Below are positions 2,163-54,207 of a DNA stretch of 64,000 nt, piece after piece. The notes beneath the pieces were generated by a model. It searched no databases. It was given only the letters and a program-made list of their open reading frames with translations, and was not told where the DNA came from. Every line of letters begins with the position of its first letter. Position 1 is the first letter of the stretch. A program made the translations under genes and the position numbers. Origin of the DNA: a virus; the IMG/VR virus record IMGVR_UViG_2531839420_000002, positions 3,685-67,684 of that record. One strand, given 5' to 3'.

Positions 2163-3149
2163 ATGGCCAAGCGCGCGAACACCCAAGTCAAGACCCCCGT
2201 CTCGAAGACCACCCGCTCCCGCAAGCGCAACAAAGAGGAGGCCGTCGTGATCACCGCCGCCACTGTTGCCCCCGCCCTGCCCTCCTCCCCCGTCGGGGCC
2301 GAGATTGACCTCGACTCGCTCGACAGCCTGCTCGCCGACGAGGTTCTTTCGGCTGATACCGAAGACGACGACCTGGACCTTGAGATCGAGATCGAAGATG
2401 AGAACGACGACCTGGACCTTGCGAGCCAGATCGAAGAGCCGGCCCCGGTCGAAACCACCCCCGCCAACAACGACGCCGAACTGGAAGCGCTGATGGCCGA
2501 GATCGAGGGCGATGACGCTCCGGTCGAAGCGAGTGACGAGGATCTGGAGAAGGTCGCCGGCGAGATCGCCCTGGAAGAAACCCGCCAGGAAATCTACGCC
2601 AAGCAAGAGTCCACCGTCGAACTGAAGGACGAGCCGGCGCCCAGCGAGGAAACCAAGACCGCGAAGGCCCCCAAGGAACCCCGCGAGAAGAAGGAGCGCG
2701 CTCCTCGGTTGACCCTGGAAAGCCTGCCCGCCGACGCCTTCGTGCTGACCCTGAGCGATGCGGAAGTGGACCTCGAAGAGAACAAGGCGACGGTGATTGC
2801 CCGGAAGCCGACCGCCGTGAAGGTCGCCGAGAAGTTCGAGAACACCCTGCTGTCGATCGCCGCCGGCAAGCTCCCGAGCGTCTACACGGTCCAGACCATG
2901 AAGTTGTTGCGCAAACAGGGCGGCACCGCGACCTCGAAGCAAATCGTCGAGGACCTGATGTCCCGCTACGGCGACGGGACGGCCCGTGCCCAAGGCAGCC
3001 AGATGATGCAGCTCCTCCCGGCGCTGAAGATCGCCGAACGGTCGGGGAACTCTCTGACCCTGAACGCCGAGTCCACTCTGGCGATGGCGATCTACGGGAT
3101 CATCGACGGCGCGTCGAGTGCCCCGGCGGAAGAGCCGGAAGCTGCGTAA
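2163..3149 (+). CDS. Highly acidic protein with basic N-terminus and C-terminal winged-helix-like domain
   Basis: GGAGATAGAC leader before ATG 2163; long D/E-rich tract; followed by terminator hairpins. Confidence 0.75.
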   Translation: MAKRANTQVKTPVSKTTRSRKRNKEEAVVITAATVAPALPSSPVGAEIDLDSLDSLLADEVLSADTEDDDLDLEIEIEDENDDLDLASQIEEPAPVETTPANNDAELEALMAEIEGDDAPVEASDEDLEKVAGEIALEETRQEIYAKQESTVELKDEPAPSEETKTAKAPKEPREKKERAPRLTLESLPADAFVLTLSDAEVDLEENKATVIARKPTAVKVAEKFENTLLSIAAGKLPSVYTVQTMKLLRKQGGTATSKQIVEDLMSRYGDGTARAQGSQMMQLLPALKIAERSGNSLTLNAESTLAMAIYGIIDGASSAPAEEPEAA

Positions 3150-3155
3150 GGGTTC

Positions 3156-3210
3156 GGGAGGGGCGCAGGCCCCTCCCCTACCCCCGGCGGGCCTGATGGC
3201 CCGCCTCTTT
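3156..3210 (+). terminator. Two tandem GC-rich hairpins (rho-independent terminator)
   Basis: GGGAGGGGC-gcag-GCCCCTCCC, then GGCGGGCC-tgat-GGCCCGCC followed by TCTTT. Confidence 0.6.
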
Positions 3211-3517
3211 CGTGCTCCAGCGCCGCCATGGCGACCTGAGTGACACGCCGGGACCTTGCCACCCATCGAGAATTTCCCGTCTGGGGCTGGGGTAAATCGC
3301 CCCGATTGAACCCCGCGTGTTTCGCGTTTTCCAGCCCCGTGGGGCGTAGGTAATGGGAAGTGAGCTACCCCTGTCGCCCCCGCCCCTCTTCTGCCCCTCT
3401 ACGCGCAATTTTCGCACATTCGCGAATACGTGATTTAGCGAATGTGCCAACCGATGCGCCTTTGGGATCGAGCGAAACTCTCCCCCATCGAAACGACGCG
3501 CATTGAGGAGACAGCGC

Positions 3518-4372
3518 ATGAGCAGAAAAGCGACTTTGACCCTCGTTCATCCGACGATCCCGCACTATCTGGCCGGTGTGACGGTCGAGGTGAAAGAGAT
3601 CACCCCTGAGTTTGCCAAGGAACTGCTCGACAGGCTTCAGACCGACAAGCGCCGAAACAGAAACTTCCGACGGTCCAACGCCGAGGCGATCCAGCGGGTC
3701 ATGGAAGCCGACTTGTTCAAGTTCAACGGCGAGAGCGTGGTGATCGACCGTGACGGCTTCCCGATCCAGGGGCAGCATCGCCTGTGGGCCTGCTGGAAGT
3801 CCAACAAGCCCTTCTGGACCGTCTTCGTCAACGGTGTCGATCCCGACGCGAAGGTGACGCTCGACACCTGCGCCAAGCGCAAGAATTCCGATGTGCTCAC
3901 CTACAGCAACGAGGTCCGCGCGACCGTCCTTGCCTCGGCGATCAACTGGCTGTGGCGCTATCGCAGCGGTGCCTCCCTCAGCAACCAAGGTAGCGTCAAC
4001 GCGCAAGAAATGCTGGCCCTGCTGAACGAAAACCCCGGGCTGCGCGCTTCGGTCGAAGCCACCCAACCCCTTGCCGGCATCACCCATCACTCCGTGGCCG
4101 CCTGGTGCCACTACGAGTTCGGGCTGGTGGATGCGACGGCGCGCGACTCGTTCTTCGAGAGCCTGATTGATGGCGCTGGCCTGAGCAAGGGGAGTCCGGT
4201 GCTGGCGCTGCGCAATCGGCTTTACAGCATGAAGAGGAGCGATCTGTTCGTTCGCAATGCGCACGTCGTGGTGCTCTTCATCCACGCCTGGAACGCCATG
4301 CGCCAGGGCAAGCGCGTCAAGAGTCTTGGCAGCGGGCACAAGCTGAGCGGTGCGATCCCGGTGATCTTTTAG
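3518..4372 (+). CDS. ParB/Srx N-terminal-like domain protein (phage ParB-like)
   Basis: RNFRRSN..FKFNGESVVID..QGQHRL resembles the NR..W..NGE.I...DGQHRL signature; RBS GAGGAG. Confidence 0.65.
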   Translation: MSRKATLTLVHPTIPHYLAGVTVEVKEITPEFAKELLDRLQTDKRRNRNFRRSNAEAIQRVMEADLFKFNGESVVIDRDGFPIQGQHRLWACWKSNKPFWTVFVNGVDPDAKVTLDTCAKRKNSDVLTYSNEVRATVLASAINWLWRYRSGASLSNQGSVNAQEMLALLNENPGLRASVEATQPLAGITHHSVAAWCHYEFGLVDATARDSFFESLIDGAGLSKGSPVLALRNRLYSMKRSDLFVRNAHVVVLFIHAWNAMRQGKRVKSLGSGHKLSGAIPVIF

Positions 4373-4463
4373 GCAATTCGCTCATTCGCTAATTAGCCGC
4401 CCGACCCGCCTACGTCGGACATGGAGACTGAACCCGTGAGCAACACAACGGGAGATAGACCCC

Positions 4464-4823
4464 ATGTCCGACAAGGTGTGGAACAAGGAAGCCATTCAAG
4501 AGCTTCTTGCCCGCAACGACGAAGCTGTCAAGCGCGCACTTCTGGCGGTATTCCGCCGACAGACCGCTGAAGAACAAACGACCGAGCGCACTCGTGAGAG
4601 CAACGGGGTCGGCTTCACCGGCCCCGACGCCGAGATCCTGACGAGCTTTGCCAAACAGCTCCAAACCCGCGGCTTTCTAAGCCCCAAACAGCTCGCCATC
4701 ACCCGCAACAAGATCAAGAAATACTGGCGTCAACTCCTTGACGAGATCGAAACCAAGGCAGGCTCACAGCAACGCCCGGCAGTGGCAGCCACCCAGACCC
4801 ACGCCGCCTACAGCTCGTTCTGA
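4464..4823 (+). CDS. Conserved hypothetical phage protein
   Basis: GGAGATAGAC leader; NGVGF..D..ILTSFAKQ..LSPKQ pattern recalled from large-phage hypotheticals. Confidence 0.75.
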   Translation: MSDKVWNKEAIQELLARNDEAVKRALLAVFRRQTAEEQTTERTRESNGVGFTGPDAEILTSFAKQLQTRGFLSPKQLAITRNKIKKYWRQLLDEIETKAGSQQRPAVAATQTHAAYSSF

Positions 4824-4921
4824 TCTGACGCTGGGCGGCTGTGCGAATTAGCGAATTCGCCGACCGCCCAGCCATAGGACTCTGGGTGAGAATGAGACAT
4901 CGACAACGAGAGGAGGCTCTG

Positions 4922-5233
4922 ATGTCCAGAAAAGGAATGATCGCCAGCGTTTATCGCGACGCCGATGGAGTTGATTGCACCAATGGCGGGATCAGCTCGA
5001 AAGCTGACCGGGTGCTGATCGTGGGCGAGGGCGTGCCCGAAATCTTCGCCGAGCGCAGTGGAATGCCGACGCTTTTGCTTGTGGATCGAGGCCCCAATCT
5101 GCCGCCGGCCCTTTATCCCGCCGATGATCTGCGGCCGGGTCGCTTCATGTTCGGCGGCAATTTCGCCTACAGCAGCGACAGCCGGTGGCCGACGGGCAAG
5201 CCGATCAAGATCCACGATCGAGCCGAGGACTAA
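4922..5233 (+). CDS. Hypothetical phage protein
   Basis: RBS GAGGAGG; DCTNGGISS..FMFGGNF pattern typical of phage hypotheticals. Confidence 0.65.
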   Translation: MSRKGMIASVYRDADGVDCTNGGISSKADRVLIVGEGVPEIFAERSGMPTLLLVDRGPNLPPALYPADDLRPGRFMFGGNFAYSSDSRWPTGKPIKIHDRAED

Positions 5234-5236
5234 GTC

Positions 5237-5419
5237 ATGACCAACCGCTTCTGCGTCCACTACCGCACCGGCGGCATCGCCAACTTCCGCTGGAACACCA
5301 CCTTCGAGTCGCTCGACACCACCGCGGCCCATGACATGGCCGCGCAGATCAGGCGCATGGGCTATCCCACCAAGATCGTCCCGGTCGGGGCGCCGCTTCC
5401 CACCAGCTACGAGGGCTGA
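5237..5419 (+). CDS. Small hypothetical protein
   Basis: Tightly packed in the operon; RBS GAGG. Confidence 0.55.
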   Translation: MTNRFCVHYRTGGIANFRWNTTFESLDTTAAHDMAAQIRRMGYPTKIVPVGAPLPTSYEG

Positions 5420-5422
5420 GCC

Positions 5423-5725
5423 ATGACCAAATACGCCTGGATCATTGACGCCGCCGAGGACGAACCCAGTATCATTGGCCCCAGCGACGCGCCGGAAGAC
5501 CTTCAGGATCGTCTGGTCGATGGCAAGGGGCTTCACTTCCGCCTTTATGACGATGACGACGAGCTTTGCCTGAAGGGCCGTTTGATAAGCGTCAATGCCG
5601 ACACGATGGCTGGTAACTACAGCGAGGAAGCGTTTGGGCCGCTTGATGACTTCGGGGCGCCGGCATATGGCTGCACTCGCATCGACTATCTGCATCCCAA
5701 GACCGAGCAATGGGAAACGCTTTAG
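5423..5725 (+). CDS. Hypothetical protein
   Basis: FRLYDDDDEL..G..YGCTRIDY pattern; packed in operon and followed by a terminator. Confidence 0.65.
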   Translation: MTKYAWIIDAAEDEPSIIGPSDAPEDLQDRLVDGKGLHFRLYDDDDELCLKGRLISVNADTMAGNYSEEAFGPLDDFGAPAYGCTRIDYLHPKTEQWETL

Positions 5726-5749
5726 CGGTTTCGCGAATTAGCAAACGAA

Positions 5750-5773
5750 AAGGGCCGGGAAATCCCGGCCCTT
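5750..5773. terminator. Hairpin between convergent genes, probable bidirectional terminator
   Basis: AAGGGCCGGGA-aa-TCCCGGCCCTT. Confidence 0.6.
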
Positions 5774-5793
5774 CTGCATTTGCGCCAAAAGCG

Positions 5794-6096
5794 TCAGTCG
5801 TGGGAAGAATGGGCGGCGTTGGGCTCCCGATAACAAGGGTTCTTCACCACGACATAGCGGGTGTAGCCGCCGCTTTCCTGATCGTTAATGGTGCCATCCT
5901 GGGCCACAGAAAACACCTCGGTGACGGGCAAATTCTTGGAACCGTCGTTATAGCCGGCGGTCTGGCACTTGCTGTTGGCAAAGTCCTCAGCGAGAGCGCT
6001 CAGAGCCGTGGCGCGCTCGAAATCGCTGGCGGCGAAAGCGGAACCAGCGGTGACAGCCAGCATGGCGAGGGAAAAGGTAAAGACAAACTTCTTCAT
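5794..6096 (-). CDS. Small exported protein (moron)
   Basis: MKKFVFTFSLAMLAVTAGSAFAA is a classic signal peptide; RBS GGAG; two Cys in the mature part. Confidence 0.7.
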   Translation of the reverse strand: MKKFVFTFSLAMLAVTAGSAFAASDFERATALSALAEDFANSKCQTAGYNDGSKNLPVTEVFSVAQDGTINDQESGGYTRYVVVKNPCYREPNAAHSSHD

Positions 6097-6277
6097 GGCG
6101 CATACTCCTTGGTCGAAATTTCGCGCCCCGTCGTGGGGCATGAGTCTATTATAGCCGGGCCGATATAGAATTTTGTGAGGCCGACGCTTTTTGCCGAACT
6201 TTCGCCGAAACATGTGCCTTGTTGCGCTGGGGTAAAGTTCCCTTGTCACAACACGACATTTCTGAGGTGAATACACC

Positions 6278-6667
6278 ATGTCCAGATCAACCAGAACGAG
6301 TCTTCTTTCGACTGCGACCGCGCTACCATCCGCCTATTCGCTAATTCGCTATGTCGCAGTGACCAAGGATGCATTGCAAAAACATCTTTTTTTCGCCTTT
6401 GTTCTCATCTGTCAACTGGCAGCGACGACACCGGCGATCAGCGACGAGTTCTACGTCAAGCGGGACAGCCGAGGCCGTCGCGTCAGGACCGTCGAACAAG
6501 GCCCAACCGATGGCTATTGGATTAGGAGGGACGAGAGCGGCCGTCGCGTCGGGACAGTCGAGAGAACCCCATACGGCGACAACATCGTGCGAGATAATCG
6601 TGGTCGCCGGATTGAAACCATTGAGAGGCGTAGTGATGACACGCCACAAACTCCTGGTCGCTGGTAA
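6278..6667 (+). CDS. Small exported protein with three RD.xGRRVxTVE repeats (true start probably about 6359-6375)
   Basis: Hydrophobic FFAFVLICQLAATTPAIS followed by three near-identical beta-hairpin-like repeats. Confidence 0.6.
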   Translation: MSRSTRTSLLSTATALPSAYSLIRYVAVTKDALQKHLFFAFVLICQLAATTPAISDEFYVKRDSRGRRVRTVEQGPTDGYWIRRDESGRRVGTVERTPYGDNIVRDNRGRRIETIERRSDDTPQTPGRW

Positions 6668-6741
6668 ATAGTCGAGGTTGACCATAATTTGCTCCCGGAT
6701 CGACTACCTCCGGTCGATCCGGCCTGTGGCTAGGACTAGCC

Positions 6742-8085
6742 ATGGCTCAATCATATACGAGACGCACCGTGGCAAGTCGCCTCAATTCAACCCTCGGTAT
6801 TCATTTTGATTGGGAGAGCGGCGAGGTTCGACAGAACAGCTCCGCCGCGATGCTGTCTCGCCAACAATCCGATTTGATGGAGATCCTTTGGCGCTGTCAC
6901 CCGCGCCCGGCCCGAAAAGAGGCGATTGTCTCCCAGCTCTACGGTGCCGCCGACGAGCCAGCAACCGCTGAAGACACGGTGCGCGTCCAGGTGGCCCAGC
7001 TCAGGCGCAAACTGACCCAGGCGGCGGTGAGCGTGAACATCACGACCGTTCGGAGCGTCGGTTATCGCCTCGATTTTGCACCCGATGCGACGCCGATCCA
7101 GAAACCTCTGGGCACCCAGATCTGCACGGTCGCGGTTCTCGACGAGTTCCTGACTTCCCTCGATGCCGCAACCGACGCCATGCAAATGGGTCAAGCGCTG
7201 ACCAGGGCTGCCCAGCAGCTCGGCTTCACCTACACGGGATACCAACTTGTCGCGGTTCCGGGGATCGACCACGATGGTCCACTGCCCCTGTTCGTGTCGG
7301 ACATCCCGGCGGAATGGGCCAGGGATTACGTCAACCACGACCTGGTGAAGCACGATCCGGCGGTCAGGGCCGCCATGATGTCGTCGAACGCCTTCACATG
7401 GCACACGTCGGAAGTTGTTGATGCGATTGACGACGAGACCATCGCGTCCATGGCTAGACGTGTCATTGCCAATGGCATCCTCGGCGGCTTCACCGTCCCC
7501 ATACACGACGCCGATGGAACCAGGGCCTTGGTCAATTTTCTCGTGACCGTAGACAAGGCTGAAGCAATCAGGCTGGTCGAGAACAATGGCCCGCTGCTGC
7601 GCCTGATCGCTTCACACTTGCACTCGCATATCCTGCCGCCGATGAGGGCCGCAGCCGAGGAGAGATTGGGGCCGCAGCTCACAGAGACCGAGATCGCTTT
7701 CCTCGGCACCAAGATGGCAGAAGTCTGCGCCAACGTGTGCGACTGCGAAGGCGGCTGCGGCTTGATCAGGAAAAAACTCGGTGCCAACTCGTGCATCCAG
7801 GCGGTGGTCAAGGCGATGCGTCTCGGTCTCATCAAGATGGCTACCTTCATCGTGGCACTGATGACGCTCGTCGCCGCGGTTCTCGACGATGAGCAGCTAC
7901 TTTCGGTCGATGAAAATAAGGATTACTACCGCCATAGCGATGCTATGCACAATTCCGCATATGGCACGCAACACTCGACCCGCTCCCGAAAAAGAAAGCT
8001 CGTATGCAATGACCCTTGCGCCCCTTTTTTCGCCCCGTGGGAGTGCGGAACCCAAAGCGGGACAGTGGGGGAGGGGAGGGGATAG
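6742..8085 (+). CDS. Hybrid regulator: N-terminal OmpR/PhoB winged helix, LuxR autoinducer-binding domain, degenerate LuxR HTH
   Basis: VRVQVAQLRRKL..ITTVRSVGYRL (Trans_reg_C); EW..DY..HDP..FTW..GG (conserved AHL-pocket residues); IRKKLGA..QAVVKAMRLGLI (LuxR C-terminal tail). Confidence 0.8.
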   Translation: MAQSYTRRTVASRLNSTLGIHFDWESGEVRQNSSAAMLSRQQSDLMEILWRCHPRPARKEAIVSQLYGAADEPATAEDTVRVQVAQLRRKLTQAAVSVNITTVRSVGYRLDFAPDATPIQKPLGTQICTVAVLDEFLTSLDAATDAMQMGQALTRAAQQLGFTYTGYQLVAVPGIDHDGPLPLFVSDIPAEWARDYVNHDLVKHDPAVRAAMMSSNAFTWHTSEVVDAIDDETIASMARRVIANGILGGFTVPIHDADGTRALVNFLVTVDKAEAIRLVENNGPLLRLIASHLHSHILPPMRAAAEERLGPQLTETEIAFLGTKMAEVCANVCDCEGGCGLIRKKLGANSCIQAVVKAMRLGLIKMATFIVALMTLVAAVLDDEQLLSVDENKDYYRHSDAMHNSAYGTQHSTRSRKRKLVCNDPCAPFFAPWECGTQSGTVGEGRG

Positions 8086-8248
8086 AACCCCACCCAGCAA
8101 AGCCCCACGGGGCGAGCAGTGATCCGCCGATAGACAAGCTGCCCCTAAAGACATCACGTTCAAATGACGAGCGCGCAAAGACAAGGCGAGTGGACATCGC
8201 TTGACCGTCGCGTTATGTCAGCGCTGACTTAATAAACAAGGAGGCACT

Positions 8249-8491
8249 ATGGAAGACCATGATCAGTTTCGCGAGCGGATGCGCCAGAAGGCGAAGGACA
8301 GCGACGTCAACCCGGCCGTTGCCGACGCCATGATCGACGCCTGTGCAAAGGCGTTCAACCCGTTGCTCCCTGCCGCCATCAACGCTGCCTTAATGAGTAA
8401 CGCCATGACCGCGGTTATGCGTCAGTTCCAGACGGCCGGCGCCTACGATCTGAGCGATACCGATCAACCCGAGCAGAAGCAGGCGGCCTGA
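8249..8491 (+). CDS. Hypothetical protein
   Basis: RBS AAGGAGG; operator-like palindrome upstream. Confidence 0.6.
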   Translation: MEDHDQFRERMRQKAKDSDVNPAVADAMIDACAKAFNPLLPAAINAALMSNAMTAVMRQFQTAGAYDLSDTDQPEQKQAA

Positions 8492-8667
8492 TGGCCATCA
8501 GGGCATTGAAGCTCGACACCTTGGCGGACGTTTTGTCCGCCAAGGTGCCCTTCTGGGAGCGAGTGCAGCTTGACACCATGCCGTTGACGAGCGGCGCCGC
8601 AGCCGAGATCGTTCCAGTCAAGAGACGCCCAGGATCAGCGTTGAACCCGGATTGGAAAAGCTGGTGA
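8491..8667 (+). CDS. Small hypothetical protein (58 aa, below ORF-track cutoff)
   Basis: TGATG overlap with the previous stop; translated by hand as MAIRALKLDTLADVLS..PDWKSW*. Confidence 0.45.
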   Translation: MAIRALKLDTLADVLSAKVPFWERVQLDTMPLTSGAAAEIVPVKRRPGSALNPDWKSW

Positions 8668-8751
8668 CGATCCGCCTCTCGACGAGCCACTCGGGACTGG
8701 GTCATTCTTTCATTAGCGAATAAGCCCATTCGCTAATGAAACGGAGGTCAC

Positions 8752-9147
8752 ATGGACAAGACAGAGATCGGCCAGTTCAAGAACGAACTGGCGCAATTCA
8801 ATGGCGCTGAGCGCTTCTATCGCCACCCCATGAACCAGCAAATCCTCTTCACCGACGGGGTGAAGTTCTTCGCCGAGAGGGCCGGTGCATTCTGGCTCCT
8901 CGACATTCTGGCGACCGAGTTGAACGAAATCCGCAAGGTCGAGGAATTTATCGTCGTGCGGCTGAACGTCACCGGCTCCAAGGCCGTTCTCATCTCCGAT
9001 GATGGCAACGACAACGTGCTGCACACCAAGAACATCTCCCTGACTGACGCCCCCGAAGGCGAATGGAAGTTCTACATGGTCGTGGCTGATCGCGACGCCA
9101 ATGACCGGGTGACGATGACCACCATCATGCTGCCGTCGGAGTATTGA
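8752..9147 (+). CDS. DUF6876-like protein of plasmids and phages
   Basis: LFTDGVKFFAERAGAFWLLD..SDDGND..TTIMLPSEY pattern; RBS GGAGG. Confidence 0.7.
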   Translation: MDKTEIGQFKNELAQFNGAERFYRHPMNQQILFTDGVKFFAERAGAFWLLDILATELNEIRKVEEFIVVRLNVTGSKAVLISDDGNDNVLHTKNISLTDAPEGEWKFYMVVADRDANDRVTMTTIMLPSEY

Positions 9148-9150
9148 ACC

Positions 9151-9363
9151 GTGAATGCCTTCGGATGCCACTGCCCCAAATGCGGCAGCTCTGGCCAGAT
9201 CGACATCTGCGCTCAGGTATGGGTCCGGCTTACCCGCGTTGGCACCGCCGCTGACCTGTCGCGCCAGGGCAATCACGAATGGAATGACGCCAGTCGGGCC
9301 ACTTGTGACTGCGGCTGGACCGGCCGGGTCAACGAGCTGATCAAGGAGAGCGGCAATGGCTGA
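9151..9363 (+). CDS. Small zinc-ribbon protein
   Basis: CPKCGS..CDCGWTG. Confidence 0.6.
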   Translation: MNAFGCHCPKCGSSGQIDICAQVWVRLTRVGTAADLSRQGNHEWNDASRATCDCGWTGRVNELIKESGNG

Positions 9364-9580
9364 CAAGATCGCCTGCCAGAAATGCGGCCGCAAATGGCAT
9401 CCGCATTTGATCGACGCCAAAGACGATGGGACTGGCAACTTCACCATCTTGGAGGGGCCGTGCTGCTACGGCCCGAATTGGGTGCCGACCACCTATACGC
9501 CGATCGGCGACTTCACCCGGTCAATGCTCGACGAGGGGATGAAGATGCATGAAATCCGAATGAGGGAGCTTCAGCCGTGA
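9356..9580 (+). CDS. Small Cys-containing hypothetical protein
   Basis: CQKCGRKW..GPCCYGP; RBS AAGGAG. Confidence 0.55.
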   Translation: MADKIACQKCGRKWHPHLIDAKDDGTGNFTILEGPCCYGPNWVPTTYTPIGDFTRSMLDEGMKMHEIRMRELQP

Positions 9581-9611
9581 TCGGCGAATATGCCAACGAA
9601 GGGAGAGCGTC

Positions 9612-9884
9612 TTGAGGCTGGTTGATTTCGTTCAGGAGACGCTGACCGACATCGGTGCCCAGCTTGCTTGGTTCGCCGACCCCACCACCGGCGATCATCG
9701 CTGGTGGTTCCGGTTGGGCCAAGGCGCTTTCGTCCCCTTCGACGGCAATATTCTGGCGGCCGGTGATCACCAAGAGATTGTTGACCTGATCACGACTGCC
9801 GCGGCGAATTATGACCCTGACGCCATCCCTGAGTGGCAAAGCATGATGTCCCTGCCGACCGTGACGCCTCTCCCGTTCTCGTAA
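9612..9884 (+). CDS. Hypothetical protein
   Basis: ORF in co-directional cluster; RBS GGGAG. Confidence 0.5.
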   Translation: MRLVDFVQETLTDIGAQLAWFADPTTGDHRWWFRLGQGAFVPFDGNILAAGDHQEIVDLITTAAANYDPDAIPEWQSMMSLPTVTPLPFS

Positions 9885-9916
9885 TCTGGATCAGGAATAA
9901 CGAGAGGAATTGAGCT

Positions 9917-10249
9917 ATGACAGAGTTGGCATACAACCCGCGCTATGCAAATTACGCCAGGGCTCACGGTCGAACGCCTGAAGAACAAGTAGCGCAGGAT
10001 CACCTCGACTGGCCCGGCGGCTCGATGTGCGGCTTCATGTTGTGGAACCGTGAGAAGGTCGGGGAGTTCGGAAAGGTAAATCCCGACGCCTTCATGGCAG
10101 GCGGCTTGTGGGATCATGCCGCCTATGATGCGTGGTTGACCGCCGAAGTGGACAAGATCACCGCGACCTGGGGCGAAGGCATGGACAAGAAGCCGTTGTT
10201 CGCCAGCGAAGAGCTGGAACCTTTGACTACGGACGGGGAGGGCGTCTGA
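9917..10249 (+). CDS. Hypothetical protein
   Basis: YNPRYANYARAHGRTPEEQ..FMLWN pattern; RBS GAGG. Confidence 0.65.
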   Translation: MTELAYNPRYANYARAHGRTPEEQVAQDHLDWPGGSMCGFMLWNREKVGEFGKVNPDAFMAGGLWDHAAYDAWLTAEVDKITATWGEGMDKKPLFASEELEPLTTDGEGV

Positions 10250-10250
10250 C

Positions 10251-10433
10251 ATGGCGATGAATGATCTGACGTGGCTCGACCGCAGGATCGCCGAACAGGC
10301 CGCTTATTACGGACTCGCCGTGGAGCGGTTTATCAAGACATCGAGCGATCTGGCCGAGGCCCAGGAAATAGCAGAAGCCACCGGCGAGTTCGCCTTCGAT
10401 CTACCGCCCGCGCAGCCGCAAGTATCTCCGTAA
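10251..10433 (+). CDS. Small hypothetical protein
   Basis: Starts 2 nt after the previous stop. Confidence 0.5.
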   Translation: MAMNDLTWLDRRIAEQAAYYGLAVERFIKTSSDLAEAQEIAEATGEFAFDLPPAQPQVSP

Positions 10434-10462
10434 ACTGGTCTCATCAACAACGGGGAAAGCCC

Positions 10463-10738
10463 ATGAGAACCTCGAACGCTGCCGGGCATGAGATCAAGCA
10501 CCCGGACGAAGTCATGACCCTGGACGAGCGCGCCTTCCAGATGTGGGCAGTTCACCCGAAGGATCTCGACAACCTCGGTTTCAAGACCAGGGTGAACTTC
10601 TTCAAGGCCCACCTGATCGCGGCGCAGGGAGGGAAAACCTTCTGCGTCGGCTGCCAGGATGAGCATAGTTGCTCCCATGAGGTGGTTGAGCGTTGCGCCG
10701 GTCTGCTGTTCCAAGCTCGTGAGCGAGTCGCGCCATGA
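10463..10738 (+). CDS. Hypothetical protein with C-terminal Cys cluster
   Basis: CVGCQDEHSC..C; ATGA overlap with next gene. Confidence 0.55.
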   Translation: MRTSNAAGHEIKHPDEVMTLDERAFQMWAVHPKDLDNLGFKTRVNFFKAHLIAAQGGKTFCVGCQDEHSCSHEVVERCAGLLFQARERVAP

Positions 10739-11310
10739 GCGCCGTCATGGGAGGGAAAACCAAAGGCGCGTCCCCAGCCGGCGTGCGAAAAGTCCTCGGC
10801 TTGATCGAGTCCGGCGTGAAGATCGGCATCTTCGGCTTGGAAATCCAGGATGTCGGCGACGCGAAGCTGCTGGCTCAGCTCAACGCCGCGCTCGCTCGCG
10901 CCGAACTGGACGGTCTTGTGGACACCGAAGGTCCCGAAGGCAAAGAGATTATGACGATCACCGCCCGGGGCAGGGAGTGGATGGCGGAACATGATCGTAG
11001 CCACGTCAATGGCATCGAACATAGCGTTATTGGCGAGCTGCTTTATCGCCTGGACGGGGAGCTGGCGACCAAAATAGCGCCCATACTGAACGCCTCCGAG
11101 CGAAAGGCTCTCAACACAGCCCGGCGTATGAGGTGGATTATCGTGACTTCTCACGATCGCTACATGGTCACGAATATGGGAGAAGACTGGCTGCTGCAAA
11201 CCCTCCAGGAAGACACGCTCAACAAGATCGCCGTTGGTCGCGCCCTGCGTCTCGACACTGGCGCCGAGTCCCAGCGCAGGGCGATCAATCCGCTCTGGGG
11301 AAGCTGGTGA
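10735..11310 (+). CDS. Hypothetical protein with two winged-helix-like repeats
   Basis: GLV...MTITARGREW and WII...YMVTNMGEDW are wing motifs (x-T-x-x-G-x-x-W). Confidence 0.55.
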   Translation: MSAVMGGKTKGASPAGVRKVLGLIESGVKIGIFGLEIQDVGDAKLLAQLNAALARAELDGLVDTEGPEGKEIMTITARGREWMAEHDRSHVNGIEHSVIGELLYRLDGELATKIAPILNASERKALNTARRMRWIIVTSHDRYMVTNMGEDWLLQTLQEDTLNKIAVGRALRLDTGAESQRRAINPLWGSW

Positions 11311-11522
11311 TGACCAATCTCAGTGAATACCAAACCACCAAAACACTGATCAATGCGTTTATGAAACCAGGGGAGCCAACCCTCGGTGAGCTGGCTCGCA
11401 TGAGCGACCATGATCGAGCAATGGCGATCAGACGGTCCCTGGAGAGCGCCGGCATCGAGGTCAAGAACTGGCCCAGGAAAGAAACGACCGCCGCGGTCAA
11501 TGAGCATTGGGGGACGTGGTGA
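11310..11522 (+). CDS. Small hypothetical protein
   Basis: TGATG coupling; its C-terminus VNEHWGTW echoes INPLWGSW of the previous gene. Confidence 0.5.
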   Translation: MTNLSEYQTTKTLINAFMKPGEPTLGELARMSDHDRAMAIRRSLESAGIEVKNWPRKETTAAVNEHWGTW

Positions 11523-11676
11523 CAGAGCCGACCGACATCGCCAAAAACTTCATGGCGGCGGTCTGCATTGCCGCAACCGTCAGTTACTGGTTATGAGTCC
11601 TGACCCTAAGTGCCAACCGAACAACAACCAAAGCTCCGATAGACTGACCCCATCAAAACAATGGGAGCGATCCAAT

Positions 11677-12027
11677 ATGGAATACGGCGATCTCATCATC
11701 GTGACCAGGGGCAAGCTGAAGGGGATGATCGGCATCTATGACGATGACGATTGGAGCCGAGGCCCGGAGGTCATCTTCTACATCGGCCCGCTGCTGACCC
11801 TCTGCTATAGCGTGCGCGCAAAATCATGTCGTAAGGCCACCTACGAAGACATCACCCAGCGCCATCATTGGCTCTGGCTGAACAAGATCAGCCGGATGGT
11901 TCGGAGCGCCAGCGACTTCGATCCCGATGAGGTCTTCAGGGCCACCCTGGAATGGACAATGCTGGAGAGCTGGCTCGGCGATCGCCGACATCAAGCCCTA
12001 CGTGAGATGACGGATCTGCCGGCATGA
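11677..12027 (+). CDS. Hypothetical protein with KOW-like N-terminus
   Basis: YGDLIIVTRGKLKGMIG matches the KOW pattern; RBS GGGAG. Confidence 0.55.
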   Translation: MEYGDLIIVTRGKLKGMIGIYDDDDWSRGPEVIFYIGPLLTLCYSVRAKSCRKATYEDITQRHHWLWLNKISRMVRSASDFDPDEVFRATLEWTMLESWLGDRRHQALREMTDLPA

Positions 12028-12057
12028 GGCGTAGATAGAAGAACCAGGAGTGTGCCA

Positions 12058-12288
12058 ATGCTAAAGGGAAAAGGCTTCATGCGGCACAAGCTGAAGAATG
12101 GCTGGACCATCGGCTACGATATCAAGAACCGCGCCATCATCCAGTTCACCAAGGATGACCAGATCCCCGGCTACAAGCTGATCGCCGGCTGGCTCTTCAG
12201 CTTTACCAAGGCGTCCTACGGGGATGGATATCGCACCTGGATCAGCATCGGCTGGGGACAAGGCTTCTGGTTCACCACTGGCTTGTAG
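12058..12288 (+). CDS. Small hypothetical protein
   Basis: RBS AGGAG; Trp/Gly-rich. Confidence 0.5.
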   Translation: MLKGKGFMRHKLKNGWTIGYDIKNRAIIQFTKDDQIPGYKLIAGWLFSFTKASYGDGYRTWISIGWGQGFWFTTGL

Positions 12289-12314
12289 GGTCATGCGGGT
12301 GAGAGGGAAGAGAC

Positions 12315-12629
12315 ATGAATAATTCATGCGAAATGGGATGGTCATATCCCGGCCCATCGAACTCTGGGATCGCGGACGTGATCGTTCACACCGTGTCTGT
12401 CGCCACGTTAATCGGAGATATCAATCCCATTCATGATTTGGATGGCGACACTGTCTTTGTTGCCAATACGAACAAAGGTCAGAGCCATCTAGGTTCCAAA
12501 ACCATGCTAATGGTTTCACATGAAGCGGACTGGTATATCGGCGTCTTGATTAAAGACGGGTTGATCGTGAATGACCTAAGAGTTGATAAATTTAGGCACG
12601 CCGATCCCCACAACGCCAATGAGGATTAG
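12315..12629 (+). CDS. Hypothetical protein (lower-GC moron)
   Basis: ORF with visibly more A/T-ending codons. Confidence 0.45.
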   Translation: MNNSCEMGWSYPGPSNSGIADVIVHTVSVATLIGDINPIHDLDGDTVFVANTNKGQSHLGSKTMLMVSHEADWYIGVLIKDGLIVNDLRVDKFRHADPHNANED

Positions 12630-19363: not shown

Positions 19364-20002
19364 TCAATCCTCCTGCAACGCAGCCAGCTTATCGGCGATG
19401 GCCTGGGCTACCTCGTCGGCGCGCTGGTTCAACGAGGCGTGCTTCGTCTCGGTGACGGCCCGCCCGCTGTCCTGAGCATCCGCATAGCCGGCGCGATCAG
19501 CAAGATCCCCGCGCAGGCACTCGTAGCCGGCCTGGGCGATATAGTCCCTGGTGGTCGCCAGTCGGGCCTCGGAACTTTTCGTGCGGCAGAGCACGAAGGC
19601 GATCCGTTGACCTACGACGCCGGCCTTCACCAGCTCGTGCGCCAGCAGCACTGTCGGCTTGAGATCGTCCAGGGTGTCGCCGGTGGGCAGAAGCACAAGA
19701 TCAGCCAGCTTGGCGGCCTCCTTGGTATCGGCATCGCTGTGAGGCTTGCCGTCGATCACCACCGCTTCATAGGCGGCCACCGGCGCTCGATCGAGCCGTG
19801 CCACGGGTTGAGCGTCAATTGTCGGCTCCTGAGCCGCGGCGTTGCGCCGACGAACCCATTCGGTCGAGGACATTTGCTTCTGATCGAGATCGGCAATCAA
19901 AGTCTTGAAGCCGTTGGCAGCCAACTCTCGGGCTACCAGGCGGGTGATCGTGGATTTGCCGACGCCACCCTTTTGACTGACGCAGGCGATGATGGTAGCC
20001 AT
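19364..20002 (-). CDS. parA: ParA family partition ATPase (short type Ib / ParF-like)
   Basis: Deviant Walker A SQKGGVGKST; DLDQKQ; VVIDG; 212 aa with no N-terminal HTH. Confidence 0.93.
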   Translation of the reverse strand: MATIIACVSQKGGVGKSTITRLVARELAANGFKTLIADLDQKQMSSTEWVRRRNAAAQEPTIDAQPVARLDRAPVAAYEAVVIDGKPHSDADTKEAAKLADLVLLPTGDTLDDLKPTVLLAHELVKAGVVGQRIAFVLCRTKSSEARLATTRDYIAQAGYECLRGDLADRAGYADAQDSGRAVTETKHASLNQRADEVAQAIADKLAALQED

Positions 20003-51207: not shown

Positions 51208-52170
51208 ATGCAGAGCTATACCGAGATCACCGACACCATGACACTGACGGCCTCCAGGCCCCTGCTGCTAAACAACGACAAGTCGATTATGTCGTGCTTC
51301 AGCGGCACCGCGTTCCCGACGATCAATCTTCAGGTCGGTATGCTGTGCCTGCGCACCGACACCTGGCAGCTCTGGCAGCTCAAAGACGCGACGCCGACCT
51401 GGGTGCTGATCGCTGACATTTCGAAAACCTATCTTTCTAAGGAGACGGCCGACACCTATTACGCCGCTCTTGCGCACAATCACAATTCGACCTACGCCGC
51501 TCTTGTGCACAATCACGATGGCGGCGCTATCACCGCCGGCACGGTGGCTTCTGCGCGCTTGCCGGCGCCGCTTCAGCAAATCACTGCCGCTGTAAATTGG
51601 GGGGCGGTGACTATCGGCGGCGTGAATGGCGGTTGGGCTGGGATCAATTTTTCCGGCACGGGAATGTATTTCCTCGTGGGTGGGGACTCTCACGGTTTTT
51701 GGACAGGCTCCGCTTGGAAATGGCATGTCAATAATGGCGTGCTGAGCGTAGGCGTCGTTCCCGTCGCCAATGTTTCCGGTCTGGGCAGTGCCGCCACCTG
51801 CAACACGGGGACAGCCGTCGGAAACGTGCCTGCGGTGCAGGCTGATGGAAAACTGCCTGCTTCCGTGATCCCGGTGGATCTGTCGAGTCGCGTCGCCAAA
51901 TCAGGCGACACCATGACTGGTCAGCTCAATGGAACGGTTTTCAAGTCAACCGGGGCATCGTCTGCTTCGACTGGTTTCAAAATTAGCACTGGGGCGGATC
52001 TAGGAGCCTTGTTCAAAGACATTAATTACACCGCAGTTCAGACTGTTTCCATCTCCAATCCTGAGGGATGGTGCGGACAACCAACAAGCTTGTCTGTTTC
52101 CGGTGGTATTTCGGGGAACAATTTGAGTCTTGGGATTAATTGCAACTGCCTTTGCAATTGCGGAGGCTGA
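51208..52170 (+). CDS. Tail fibre protein with HxH repeats and C-terminal Cys-rich tail (NCNCLCNCGG)
   Basis: YAALAHNH/YAALVHNH 33-bp repeat; LGSAAT..G..GNVP and VAKSGDTMTG fibre motifs; terminal CNCLCNCGG. Confidence 0.82.
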   Translation: MQSYTEITDTMTLTASRPLLLNNDKSIMSCFSGTAFPTINLQVGMLCLRTDTWQLWQLKDATPTWVLIADISKTYLSKETADTYYAALAHNHNSTYAALVHNHDGGAITAGTVASARLPAPLQQITAAVNWGAVTIGGVNGGWAGINFSGTGMYFLVGGDSHGFWTGSAWKWHVNNGVLSVGVVPVANVSGLGSAATCNTGTAVGNVPAVQADGKLPASVIPVDLSSRVAKSGDTMTGQLNGTVFKSTGASSASTGFKISTGADLGALFKDINYTAVQTVSISNPEGWCGQPTSLSVSGGISGNNLSLGINCNCLCNCGG

Positions 52171-52171
52171 G

Positions 52172-52912
52172 ATGATTTTTTTCTGCAAAAATTCAGCGTC
52201 CAACGGTTTTCACGTTGCCGTTTCAAATCTGGATGACGGTATCCGGGTCGAGCTTCATCTTCCTGATGAAGGTGGAAAATTAAACCGTGTTGCCGCAAGG
52301 GATTTTCATTACGAAGATTGGCGAAATCTTCGCGGTTGGTCTGACCGTGCCTCGTGGATGATCACCTCGGATTGCGTTATGAACGGAGCGACGCCGTTTA
52401 ATCTTTATGAGAGATCCTGGCCCTTTCGCACGAGCGCGGTGGAAACCACGTCAACGATTTCGTGCTTTACCCCGGTTGTCTCTGTTCTTGTGCCGACGGC
52501 AACGGCGCCCGTGAGTCGCTGGTCGTATATTGTTTTCGCCGCAGATCGAAGCAAAGTTGTCGGCAGCTTTCCGATTGACGAAGAGGCGTCTTCTGGCGAC
52601 GAGGTGAGGGAGCGAGTTTCCCCTAAGCTGGTATTTGAAAATTTCCCTGACGCGCTGCCGAGTAATGGCTTTGTCGATCTCTCGCTCAAATTGGTCGATT
52701 TTGCCGATAAGCCTGTTGAACTGGACGCAACGGCCGAAGTGTCGGCGACTGGAGGCGTTTTGTCGTGCTCGAGACCTCAGATCAAGAGCGGGCGCGGGAC
52801 TGTTCGATGGTTTGGCGCTTACACGAGTCCCGGTGACGTTCTGGATGTAAAGGTGGGGTTCAAGCTTTTTTCTGGAACCGACAAGCGGTCTCTGAAGGTG
52901 ATCGAGGGGTAG
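52172..52912 (+). CDS. Uncharacterised partner protein with C-terminal Ig-like beta-sandwich
   Basis: Starts 1 nt after the fibre stop; C-terminus LSLKLVD..V.ATGG.L..G.GTV..DVKVGF. Confidence 0.7.
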   Translation: MIFFCKNSASNGFHVAVSNLDDGIRVELHLPDEGGKLNRVAARDFHYEDWRNLRGWSDRASWMITSDCVMNGATPFNLYERSWPFRTSAVETTSTISCFTPVVSVLVPTATAPVSRWSYIVFAADRSKVVGSFPIDEEASSGDEVRERVSPKLVFENFPDALPSNGFVDLSLKLVDFADKPVELDATAEVSATGGVLSCSRPQIKSGRGTVRWFGAYTSPGDVLDVKVGFKLFSGTDKRSLKVIEG

Positions 52913-52914
52913 CG

Positions 52915-54207
52915 ATGGAGCCGATTTTTCACGAGGTAACGCTTCGGGATCGGGGTGGAAAAGATGAAGTTTTCCGTTTCGACAGCGCCAACATGCGTTT
53001 GCTTGATCAATTTGGCGTTCTGATCGAGCCAAAGATTGACGCTTCTCTTCCGACCTTCGGAAGTTGTGGATCGAAGCCTGCAAGGGTTATTTCTCCGACG
53101 GCTCCCGGACGAAAGAGTCGCGATCTTTCATATATCAAGCTGCTGCTTGGCTTTTCTTGCAACTTCAATTGCACCTATTGCAATCAGAGGTCTCAGACGC
53201 ATGATGGCGCAAGCACGGGTGATCCCGAGGCGTTCGTCGAGGGGATGTCCAAGTGGTGCTCGGGCGGGAGCGATGATCTAGGTTCTGGTCTTCGCATGAG
53301 CCTGTGGGGCGGTGAGCCATTCGTTTATTGGAGCGTTTTGAAAAAGATGGTTCCCGCGCTGCGGCGACGCTACCCGCATATCGCCCTGAGCATGGTGACG
53401 AATGGGTCGCTTCTGACCCAGGAGCGCGTGAACTTTGTGTGCGAAAACGACATCAATTTGATGATCAGCCATGATGGACCTGGCCATTATCTTCGAGGAG
53501 TTGATCCCTTAAAGGACTCCTCCATTGTGGAGCTGATTTGTCAGCTTCTTGATCGTCGTGGCAAGGAGAAGGTTGGCTTCAATTGTGTTTTGACCAGGGA
53601 GAATTGCTCCCTGTCGAGAATTCACGATCACATCGCTGAAGCTCTTGGTCGTGAAGATTTTGGGTTCTCGACGGAGGGTGTTGTTCAGACTGAGGACGAC
53701 GGTTCTTTTTCGGTTTCCCCATCGTCGAAGGAAAATTACGAGGATATTTATTTGACGCTGCTGAAAGATGCCATCGAAGGGGGCGCTCTCAAGGCTGGAA
53801 CCTACAACCTCGAATATATCGGTGCCCTGAGAGCCTTTTCGGAGCACCCGGAAATGAATGCGTGGGGTCAGCGCTGCGGTTTGGACCGGGATGACGTGTT
53901 GGCGGTTGATCTTGCTGGCAATGTTTTAACTTGTCAGAACGAGATTGATCCCTCAATGCGAATTGGCCACGTAAACAATCTCGACGCGGTGCGCTTGAAT
54001 ACCAGCTATCACTTTATGGCGCGCGAGAGTTGTGTTCGTTGTCCTGTAGTGCAGCTTTGCAAAGGCGGCTGTATGCATCAGACGGGAGTTGCTTGGGAAA
54101 CGACCTGTCGCAATCATTACCACTATCATCTTTCTGTTCTGGCCACGGCGATATTCTCCATGACGGGCAAGATTTTAGTAGGGATTTGCTCTGACGATAA
54201 GGCGTAA
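52915..54207 (+). CDS. Radical SAM/SPASM-domain protein (peptide/protein maturase type)
   Basis: CNFNCTYC (CxxxCxxC); WGGEPF; TNGSLL; ISHDG; SPASM C..D..G....C and CVRCPVVQLCKGGC..C. Confidence 0.93.
   Translation: MEPIFHEVTLRDRGGKDEVFRFDSANMRLLDQFGVLIEPKIDASLPTFGSCGSKPARVISPTAPGRKSRDLSYIKLLLGFSCNFNCTYCNQRSQTHDGASTGDPEAFVEGMSKWCSGGSDDLGSGLRMSLWGGEPFVYWSVLKKMVPALRRRYPHIALSMVTNGSLLTQERVNFVCENDINLMISHDGPGHYLRGVDPLKDSSIVELICQLLDRRGKEKVGFNCVLTRENCSLSRIHDHIAEALGREDFGFSTEGVVQTEDDGSFSVSPSSKENYEDIYLTLLKDAIEGGALKAGTYNLEYIGALRAFSEHPEMNAWGQRCGLDRDDVLAVDLAGNVLTCQNEIDPSMRIGHVNNLDAVRLNTSYHFMARESCVRCPVVQLCKGGCMHQTGVAWETTCRNHYHYHLSVLATAIFSMTGKILVGICSDDKA

Follow-up and report, generated by a model that had tools for sequence, protein, structure and literature searches.

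The 64,000-nucleotide stretch of DNA analysed here, hereafter the window, comprises bases 3685–67684 of the 112,764-bp contig recorded in IMG/VR as IMGVR_UViG_2531839420_000002. Within it lies a gene whose product, P0001, joins an OmpR/PhoB-type winged helix to the ligand-binding domain of LuxR-type quorum-sensing receptors. On balance, P0001 is likely to be a regulator that is gated by a ligand of the acyl-homoserine lactone (AHL) type, binds DNA with its N-terminal winged helix and listens to the signals of other bacteria. As judged from sequence comparison, the fusion is conserved in a related phage and is probably a working, rewired quorum-sensing switch. Most probably, it functions as a LuxR receptor into which another output domain has been transplanted. 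LuxR receptors of phages, LuxR solos and truncated LuxR proteins that act as inhibitors are already known; a fusion of Trans_reg_C and Autoind_bind, the Pfam families of the two domains, has no apparent description in the full-text literature, as judged from titles and abstracts.

Domain architecture of P0001

The initial annotation, which was made from the sequence letters and a list of open reading frames, had proposed an N-terminal Trans_reg_C domain without a receiver, and a scan with hidden Markov models (HMMs) agrees. Pfam matched Trans_reg_C at residues 37–110 (E 9e-12; 45 bits against a cut-off of 26) and Autoind_bind (PF03472) at residues 149–296 (E 1.5e-22; 80 bits against a cut-off of 23). 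Response_reg gave no match in P0001 at E ≤ 10, and only 19 residues lie ahead of the winged helix. GerE (PF00196), the DNA-binding family of LuxR proteins, matched neither the whole of P0001 at E ≤ 10 nor residues 300–390 alone at E ≤ 1. NCBIfam divides the protein in the same way: TraR/SdiA models fall on residues 137–265, and response-regulator models match only by their C-terminal effector part, on residues 7–117. P0001 is outside the LuxR-type definition, which asks for GerE, and outside the OmpR-type response-regulator definition, which asks for a receiver. The choice of start codon is limited to the ATG at 6742 or the GTG at 6769, since the conserved N-terminal strands begin near residue 19 in the alignment.

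An AlphaFold2 (AF2) model of P0001 was built on an alignment of 150 sequences (149 search matches and P0001 itself) and has a mean predicted local distance difference test score (pLDDT) of 80. Both functional domains (residues 20–112 and 129–300) are modelled at pLDDT 89–97, except for a block at residues 171–180 with a value of 76. The winged helix, at pLDDT 91–97, consists of a three-stranded sheet and three helices, including the recognition helix (residues 76–93), followed by a wing (residues 98–112); the recognition helix and the wing are canonical.

The best solved relatives of P0001 are full-length LasR structures (E 2e-8), in which LasR residues 2–238 align with residues 131–365. In a Foldseek comparison, the P0001 ligand domain superposes on crystal structures of the LasR ligand domain with template modelling (TM) scores of 0.82–0.86 and root-mean-square deviations of 2.1–2.4 Å. 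The six hallmark pocket residues of the family (W57, Y61, D70, P71, W85 and G113 in TraR numbering) are all retained in P0001. In the HMMER alignment, LasR W60, Y64, D73, P74, W88 and G113 correspond to W192, Y196, D205, P206, W220 and G249, in agreement with the W, Y, D-P, W and G residues listed by the initial annotation. They are invariant in P0003 and P0023, the two relatives with the same fusion that are described below.

Table 1. Positions in the window of the receptor gene, its segments and the other features discussed.
Feature	Position	Strand	Details
Two tandem ATTCGCTA octamer boxes	6336–6351	+	ahead of the small gene and receptor pair
Small upstream neighbour gene	6374–6667	+	TTG 6374 is the inferred start, preceded by the ribosome-binding site AAGGA
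Perfect 10-bp inverted repeat, 8-bp spacer	6695–6722		20 nt ahead of the ATG; may be an operator or a hairpin of the leader RNA
Receptor gene (P0001)	6742–8085	+	open over 447 codons, 447 aa; GC content at third codon positions (GC3) 0.77 over residues 31–365
Alternative GTG start of the receptor gene	6769	+	yields the 438-aa P0002, the product in the public gene call
OmpR/PhoB-type winged helix-turn-helix, residues 20–112	6799–7077	+	Pfam, AF2, identity to P0003 and P0004; no receiver
Flexible linker, residues 113–128	7078–7125	+	pLDDT ~61, below 50 at 117–124; 8–19% identity to relatives
LuxR-type autoinducer (AHL)-binding domain, residues 129–300	7126–7641	+	Pfam, Foldseek, residue mapping
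Fossil GerE/LuxR helix-turn-helix, residues 313–365	7678–7836	+	alignment; GC3 0.82; no GerE HMM match
Cys patch C329-x3-C333-x-C335-x3-C339	7726–7758	+	takes the place of the turn and the beginning of the recognition helix; AF2 loop, pLDDT ~70–74
Transmembrane-like hydrophobic helix, residues 366–384	7837–7893	+	AF2 helix; Kyte-Doolittle; P0003 and P0023 end earlier
Disordered C-terminal tail, residues 385–447, and stop codon	7894–8085	+	pLDDT 35–43; no homologue found
Small type Ib ParA	19364–20002	-	gene content of the window

Behind the ligand domain, a LuxR tail is present, and canonical LuxR proteins, including full-length LasR, align as far as residues 364–368. Compared with the canonical C-terminal consensus of the 150-sequence alignment, this region retains three helices, namely the first (LT-E--L), the scaffold helix and the last one (KLG---QAV-KA--LGLI). 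Five residues are missing behind the first helix, and another four from within the recognition helix. Together with the four-Cys patch and the missing GerE match, the two deletions confirm the shortened, Cys-substituted helix-turn-helix (HTH) core of the initial annotation. A frameshift was rejected as the cause of the short HTH: the other two frames of 7660–7860 contain nothing HTH-like, so the deletions are in-frame. AF2 models the fossil as three helices (residues 315–328, 338–346 and 351–360; pLDDT 70–89) and not as the four-helix GerE bundle. Its last helix is 52–62% identical to canonical LuxR C-termini over 21–23 residues, and no GerE remnant follows P0003 or P0023 in any frame. The fossil is too consensus-like for drift since the phages of P0001 and P0003 diverged, which suggests that either the deletions are recent or the flanking helices are still useful. 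The last helix forms a dimer contact in GerE-type domains, and the conserved one of the fossil may still aid dimerisation. The Cys patch, with Asn, Asp and Glu between its cysteines, also loosely resembles an Asn/Cys ladder at the tip of the phage tail fibre (51208–54207); this likeness is probably a coincidence.

The hydrophobic segment and tail noted initially are likewise seen: the Kyte-Doolittle 19-residue mean reaches 2.38 over residues 363–381, and 62 residues predicted to be disordered follow the helix. Codon bias (GC3 0.76–0.82) spans residues 31–385, with a value of 0.80 in the hydrophobic helix; GC3 is 0.47 in the first 30 codons. In the last 62 codons (residues 386–447) it is 0.60, close to the GC content of the adjoining intergenic DNA (0.56 overall), and the tail is probably a recent read-through beyond the ancestral stop. 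Like the winged-helix regulators ToxR and CadC, the receptor might be anchored in the inner membrane and bind DNA there; the hydrophobicity of the helix, its confident prediction and its coding-like GC3 would allow this. However, the core of the helix contains only ~16 hydrophobic residues and lies where the ancestral stop should be, no such helix exists in P0003 or P0023, and the sensor domain would be cytoplasmic, unlike those of ToxR and CadC. We regard a membrane-tethered receptor as highly improbable.

Relatives of the fusion, the phage and its host

HMMER was run exhaustively against 1.84 billion cluster representatives and gave 412 matches, the best 150 of which were inspected. Nearly all of these 150 are ordinary LuxR proteins, matching residues ~130–365, or stand-alone winged helices, matching residues ~18–115. 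Two exceptions among the matches listed, P0003 and P0023, consist of a winged helix and an AHL domain and have no GerE. In a word-indexed search of 5.8 billion proteins, P0001 had no match but itself.

P0003 (293 aa; Trans_reg_C and Autoind_bind) aligns with P0001 at 33% identity over residues 21–304 (E 3.5e-38) and ends eight residues past the ligand domain. It is encoded on L018, a metagenomic scaffold of ~102 kb that is rich in small phage-type genes (54% GC, against 60%). In L018 and the window alike, phrog_5235 (43% identity), phrog_12268 (42%) and a small repeat protein (27%) precede the receptor in this order. Downstream, both carry a DUF6876 protein (48%) and a 191/203-aa protein (30%) in swapped order, so that five genes are shared besides the receptor. 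The conserved gene order indicates that P0003 is the orthologue in a related phage. Identity between the two receptors is 41% in the winged helix, 32% in the ligand domain and 8% in the linker. A maximum-likelihood tree built from 137 ligand domains places theirs as sisters, with a value of 93 in the Shimodaira-Hasegawa-like approximate likelihood ratio test (SH-aLRT). The initial annotation had named a decayed one-off fusion as the finding that would speak against its proposal; the syntenic orthologue keeps the fusion, which is the opposite result.

P0023 (312 aa; Trans_reg_C and Autoind_bind, no GerE) lies on L019, a 10.9-kb contig with RadC and a tyrosine integrase. An 89-aa XRE/HTH_3 gene stands directly ahead of it, and P0023 overlaps a gene for a 229-aa protein of no known family (900–2411 of L019). 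This layout is like the xre-luxR operon of Aeromonas phages. The ligand domain of P0023 is 41–43% identical to canonical LuxR proteins and 27% identical to that of P0001, and it is placed elsewhere in the tree. By sequence, P0023 is likely to be a fusion of independent origin, although a single clade has p 0.24 in the approximately unbiased (AU) test and is not rejected. An assembly artefact joining two genes was rejected as the source of the fusion, since the same fusion is present in the two independent assemblies L018 and L019.

Two further proteins resemble parts of P0001. P0004 is a stand-alone 119-aa winged helix, 48–49% identical to residues 18–114, on a contig that ends just after the gene. 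P0152 (409 aa), annotated as 'response regulator' in a metagenome-assembled genome (MAG) of Steroidobacter, combines Autoind_bind, Response_reg and Trans_reg_C; we know of no description of this hybrid architecture. P0003, P0023 and P0152 together suggest that the pairing of AHL-binding and winged-helix domains recurs. A fused homologue was found by tblastn in none of 50,697 GenBank phages and none of 72,556 PLSDB plasmids. Pattern scans with the three-protein alignment returned no relative in IMG/VR, the GTDB species genomes or the JGI metagenomes, and, outside the genome to which the window belongs, a profile search of 400 genomes evenly drawn from the class matched the ligand domain alone. 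The receptor is also absent from 52 related phage loci, 45 of them IMG/VR loci reached through the DUF6876 neighbour and 7 through the phrog_5235 neighbour.

The contig repeats its first 2.4 kb at its end with 99.9–100% identity, which indicates a circular or terminally redundant molecule of ~110.4 kb. It was assembled apart from the chromosome contigs and has a GC content of 59.7%, against ~62% for the large chromosome contigs. Genes in the window encode terminase, portal, major capsid, tape measure and a J-like tail protein, as well as a DnaB-type helicase and a primase. The capsid protein is ~60% identical to those of 106–117-kb siphoviruses of Pseudomonas, Rhizobium, Stenotrophomonas and Xanthomonas and of ~110-kb Klebsiella phages, which we take to be SSU5-like phage-plasmids. 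Besides the small ParA (Table 1), the element carries two ParB_N-domain genes and a 286-aa Xer-like tyrosine recombinase. The phage context assumed at the outset is borne out by the structural genes, the capsid relatives, the separate circular contig and ParA; from its gene content and its assembly as a separate circle, the element appears to be a temperate phage-plasmid.

The host is an alphaproteobacterium, with best RpoB-fragment identities of 79–80% (Azospirillum oryzae, Stellaceae and other MAGs). The initial annotation had noted that no luxI is present in the window; LuxI (PF00765) is absent not only there but from the whole 3.8-Mb, 100%-complete host assembly. The same search found LuxI in 12 of 40 relatives and in 4 of 20 congeneric species, which shows that the search works and that AHL producers exist among the close kin. 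Each of the four species sampled from other genera of the host's family also has LuxI. The receptor is the only Autoind_bind match in the host assembly, which contains eleven ordinary GerE regulators.

These findings bear on a decoy role, in which P0001 would sequester AHL or form dead heterodimers with a bacterial LuxR protein and its DNA-binding domains would be irrelevant. A defective LuxR HTH next to an intact ligand-binding domain, which is also the dimerisation domain, would suit such a dominant negative, and truncated LuxR homologues (TrlR/TraS of Agrobacterium) act in this way. Against it, the host offers neither another Autoind_bind protein nor a LuxI. An intact, canonical winged helix, the best conserved region between the orthologues, would moreover be superfluous for a decoy. 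The AHL sink or anti-activator that the initial annotation had offered as its second option is thereby weakened, and we consider it quite improbable.

Upstream region and dispersed motifs

The inverted repeat ahead of the receptor gene, pointed out initially, is real. It is the sole such site on the 112-kb contig when up to two mismatches per arm are allowed; single arms have matches with one mismatch elsewhere in the window. With no second copy on the contig, the repeat was rejected as a regulon marker. It could be an auto-operator. The leader RNA (6668–6760) folds at -34.8 kcal/mol, with a z score of -3.2 against shuffled controls, and two hairpins are predicted. The inverted repeat forms an 11-bp hairpin, and the second hairpin is predicted to pair the ATG at 6742. 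Neither candidate start (6742, 6769) is preceded by a clear Shine-Dalgarno sequence.

The paired ATG without a clear ribosome-binding site and the low GC3 of the first 30 codons would also fit a gene in decay, that is, a fusion that was functional in an ancestor and of which the P0001 copy is heading for loss. The two HTH deletions, the loss of the stop codon and the 62-residue disordered tail without codon bias point in the same direction. In contrast, the 447-codon frame is open at 60% GC, and GC3 stays at 0.76–0.82 through the intact domains, the fossil and the hydrophobic helix. Both deletions are in-frame, every hallmark residue of the two functional domains is intact, and the relatives show that GerE is dispensable for proteins with a winged helix and an AHL domain. 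On this evidence, decay has little likelihood.

The product of the small gene directly upstream begins with a hydrophobic stretch that resembles a signal peptide, contains three RD-x-RGRR-x-T-V/I-E repeats and belongs to no Pfam or PHROG family. Its homologue in L018 (9547–9825; 27% identity, E 3e-5) stands directly ahead of P0003. Further upstream, a counter-oriented small open reading frame (ORF; 5794–6102, - strand) has a signal-peptide-like N-terminus (MKKFVF...AFA), low GC3 and no family. Neither the window nor L018 has an XRE gene next to the receptor, whereas in L019 one precedes P0023. Neither a small anti-repressor gene nor a cI-type repressor was identified, and the neighbouring small genes belong to no known family.

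Both dispersed motifs of the initial annotation stand up to counting against expectation. The decamer ATTCGCTAAT / ATTCGCGAAT occurs at 22 sites in the window, where 2.3 are expected, located between 199 and 23932 and between 60003 and 63408, and arranged as tandem 8-bp boxes or as palindromes. At least four tandem copies are present at contig positions 79709–79742, beyond the window. L018 contains 15 ATTCGCTAAT sites (2368–12605; 0.9 expected), whereas the host and more distant phage loci have them at background density. An arrangement of 8-bp boxes in tandem, both direct and inverted, is more typical of ribbon-helix-helix proteins than of OmpR-type domains, and a shared early or partition regulator probably uses the ATTCGCTAAT / ATTCGCGAAT sites as its operator. 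For this reason, and since their co-occurrence with the receptor is confounded by the relatedness of the phages, the ATTCGCTA boxes ahead of the gene pair, which are formed by this motif, were not adopted as the site of the receptor. The palindrome AAGTCA-N4-TGACTT has 19 sites with at most one mismatch (0.08 expected) between 8215 and 61730 of the window, all of which read on the + strand and lie at gene junctions. The first is 130 bp past the receptor stop, between the receptor and the next gene.

Proposed ligand gating by an AHL-type domain

We propose that P0001 would act as a one-component transcription factor of a plasmid-like temperate phage. Its LuxR-type domain would bind a ligand, most likely an acyl-homoserine lactone, which would control folding and/or dimerisation. 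Ligand binding stabilises or dimerises the canonical family members LasR and TraR, and we infer the same of P0001. Such stabilisation or dimerisation would bring two winged helices onto DNA, each on a flexible linker of ~16 residues. The output would be DNA binding by the OmpR-type winged helix and not by the LuxR HTH, which two in-frame deletions would have inactivated. Since the host has neither luxI nor a LuxR receptor of its own, the signal would come from other bacteria, and the phage would eavesdrop on the community. In this history, a phage winged-helix regulator would have been joined to the N-terminal side of an entire LuxR solo. Of the two DNA-binding domains, the second would then have become dispensable; it would have been lost outright in the sister phage and left as a fossil in P0001. 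By analogy with the Aeromonas phages Apop and ARM81ld, we favour an ancestor with both DNA-binding domains. The initial proposal that DNA binding has moved to an AHL-gated OmpR-type domain appears to fit best with the sequences and the model, in which the orthologue lacks GerE and the winged helix is the best conserved region and is predicted at pLDDT above 90. The analysis shows the domain composition, the pocket residues, the damaged HTH, the conservation among relatives, the phage-plasmid setting and the lack of luxI and luxR in the host; we infer the ligand class, the dimerisation, the DNA target, what is regulated (lysis-lysogeny or accessory genes) and in which order the evolutionary events took place.

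Several points weigh against this proposal. In the pocket, LasR Y56, which hydrogen-bonds the AHL at the carbonyl of its acyl amide, is replaced by I188 in P0001, by Ala in P0003 and by Phe in P0023, and LasR S129 corresponds to N265 in P0001. The replacement of these two residues suggests that the ligand may not be a standard AHL. To our knowledge, gating by a LuxR ligand domain has never been shown for an OmpR-type domain N-terminal to the sensor. No DNA target of P0001 was identified; the inverted repeat, being unique, may be only an RNA hairpin. The predicted leader, with its paired ATG and without a clear ribosome-binding site, also counts against the proposal. Finally, all fusion proteins are singletons in 90% clusters, so that long-term selection rests on very few sequences.

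The pocket substitutions would also fit a receptor with the same architecture and logic whose pocket has been retuned to another small molecule, as in the LuxR solos that sense compounds from plants or other non-AHL molecules. Beyond the position of Y56, which is altered in all three fusions, and the change from Ser to Asn, LasR R61 and T75 are replaced by A193 and A207 in P0001, and the host makes no LuxI-type signal. However, the six AHL-receptor hallmarks are present in all three fusion proteins, and known non-AHL solos alter W57 or Y61 (TraR numbering). LuxI in the 4 of 20 congeners and the 12 of 40 relatives also makes AHLs plausible in the habitat. A non-AHL ligand is a serious though unlikely alternative.

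P0001 shares features with several known systems. Like LasR, TraR, QscR, SdiA, CepR2 and RhlR, it has the fold of the ligand domain and the W-Y-D-P-W-G residues, and its tail aligns to LasR residues 170–238. Unlike these canonical proteins, it lacks a functional GerE domain, has Ile at the position of Y56 and carries an additional N-terminal winged helix and a C-terminal hydrophobic extension. ToxR, CadC and SARP/AfsR are receiver-less regulators with an N-terminal winged helix. P0001 has the Trans_reg_C fold in common with OmpR/PhoB, ToxR, CadC and SARP, and its winged helix is likewise N-terminal and without a receiver. Its control domain is of the LuxR-type autoinducer-binding class instead of a phospho-receiver, a periplasmic sensor or a BTAD domain. 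P0001 differs from ToxR and CadC in having its sensor behind the winged helix and ahead of the hydrophobic helix; what comes after the hydrophobic helix is a 62-residue disordered tail and no periplasmic sensor. TrlR/TraS also have a LuxR ligand domain without a working LuxR HTH. Whereas they poison the resident TraR, the host of P0001 has no resident LuxR protein and P0001 possesses another, conserved DNA-binding domain. P0152 similarly has an OmpR-type winged helix instead of GerE in addition to its AHL-binding domain. It differs in that the ligand domain comes first, a complete receiver lies between the two, the gene is chromosomal in a MAG and the ligand domain is nearest to another LuxR lineage.

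The closest functional parallel is found in linear plasmid-like phages of Aeromonas, whose receptors LuxR(ARM81ld) and LuxR(Apop) bind the AHL of the host (PMC6456758, PMC9894119, PMC10432266). Activation of a small anti-repressor gene by the phage LuxR protein requires a second DNA-binding protein, XRE (PMC10432266, PMC9894119), and the reason for this double requirement is still unknown in those phages (PMC10432266). The two systems are alike in that an AHL-type ligand domain is encoded by an extrachromosomal temperate phage and that a second DNA-binding module is involved. The Aeromonas receptors, however, are canonical (Autoind_bind and GerE) and respond to a signal made by the host. In P0001, the additional module is the fused OmpR-type winged helix, GerE is destroyed and the host lacks luxI. 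Rather tentatively, P0001 may combine an AHL-binding domain that gates a different class of DNA-binding domain on its N-terminal side, an evolutionary intermediate with an HTH fossil, eavesdropping by the phage on AHLs from bacteria other than its signal-blind host, and a covalent counterpart of the Aeromonas co-requirement for XRE and LuxR; if so, phage LuxR receptors in general would act through a partner DNA-binding module.

Few phage receptors for quorum sensing have been characterised in what is still a young field. A receptor to which a second DNA-binding domain is fused and whose own HTH is dispensable provides a testable handle on the XRE requirement of the Aeromonas phages. If the proposal is true, the AHL-binding domain would be a portable ligand switch that drives an OmpR-type winged helix from the opposite end of the polypeptide, which bears on how LuxR ligand domains transmit their signal and on the construction of orthogonal AHL-responsive regulators. 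Because its host has neither luxI nor luxR, the phage receptor is a clean candidate for cross-species eavesdropping.

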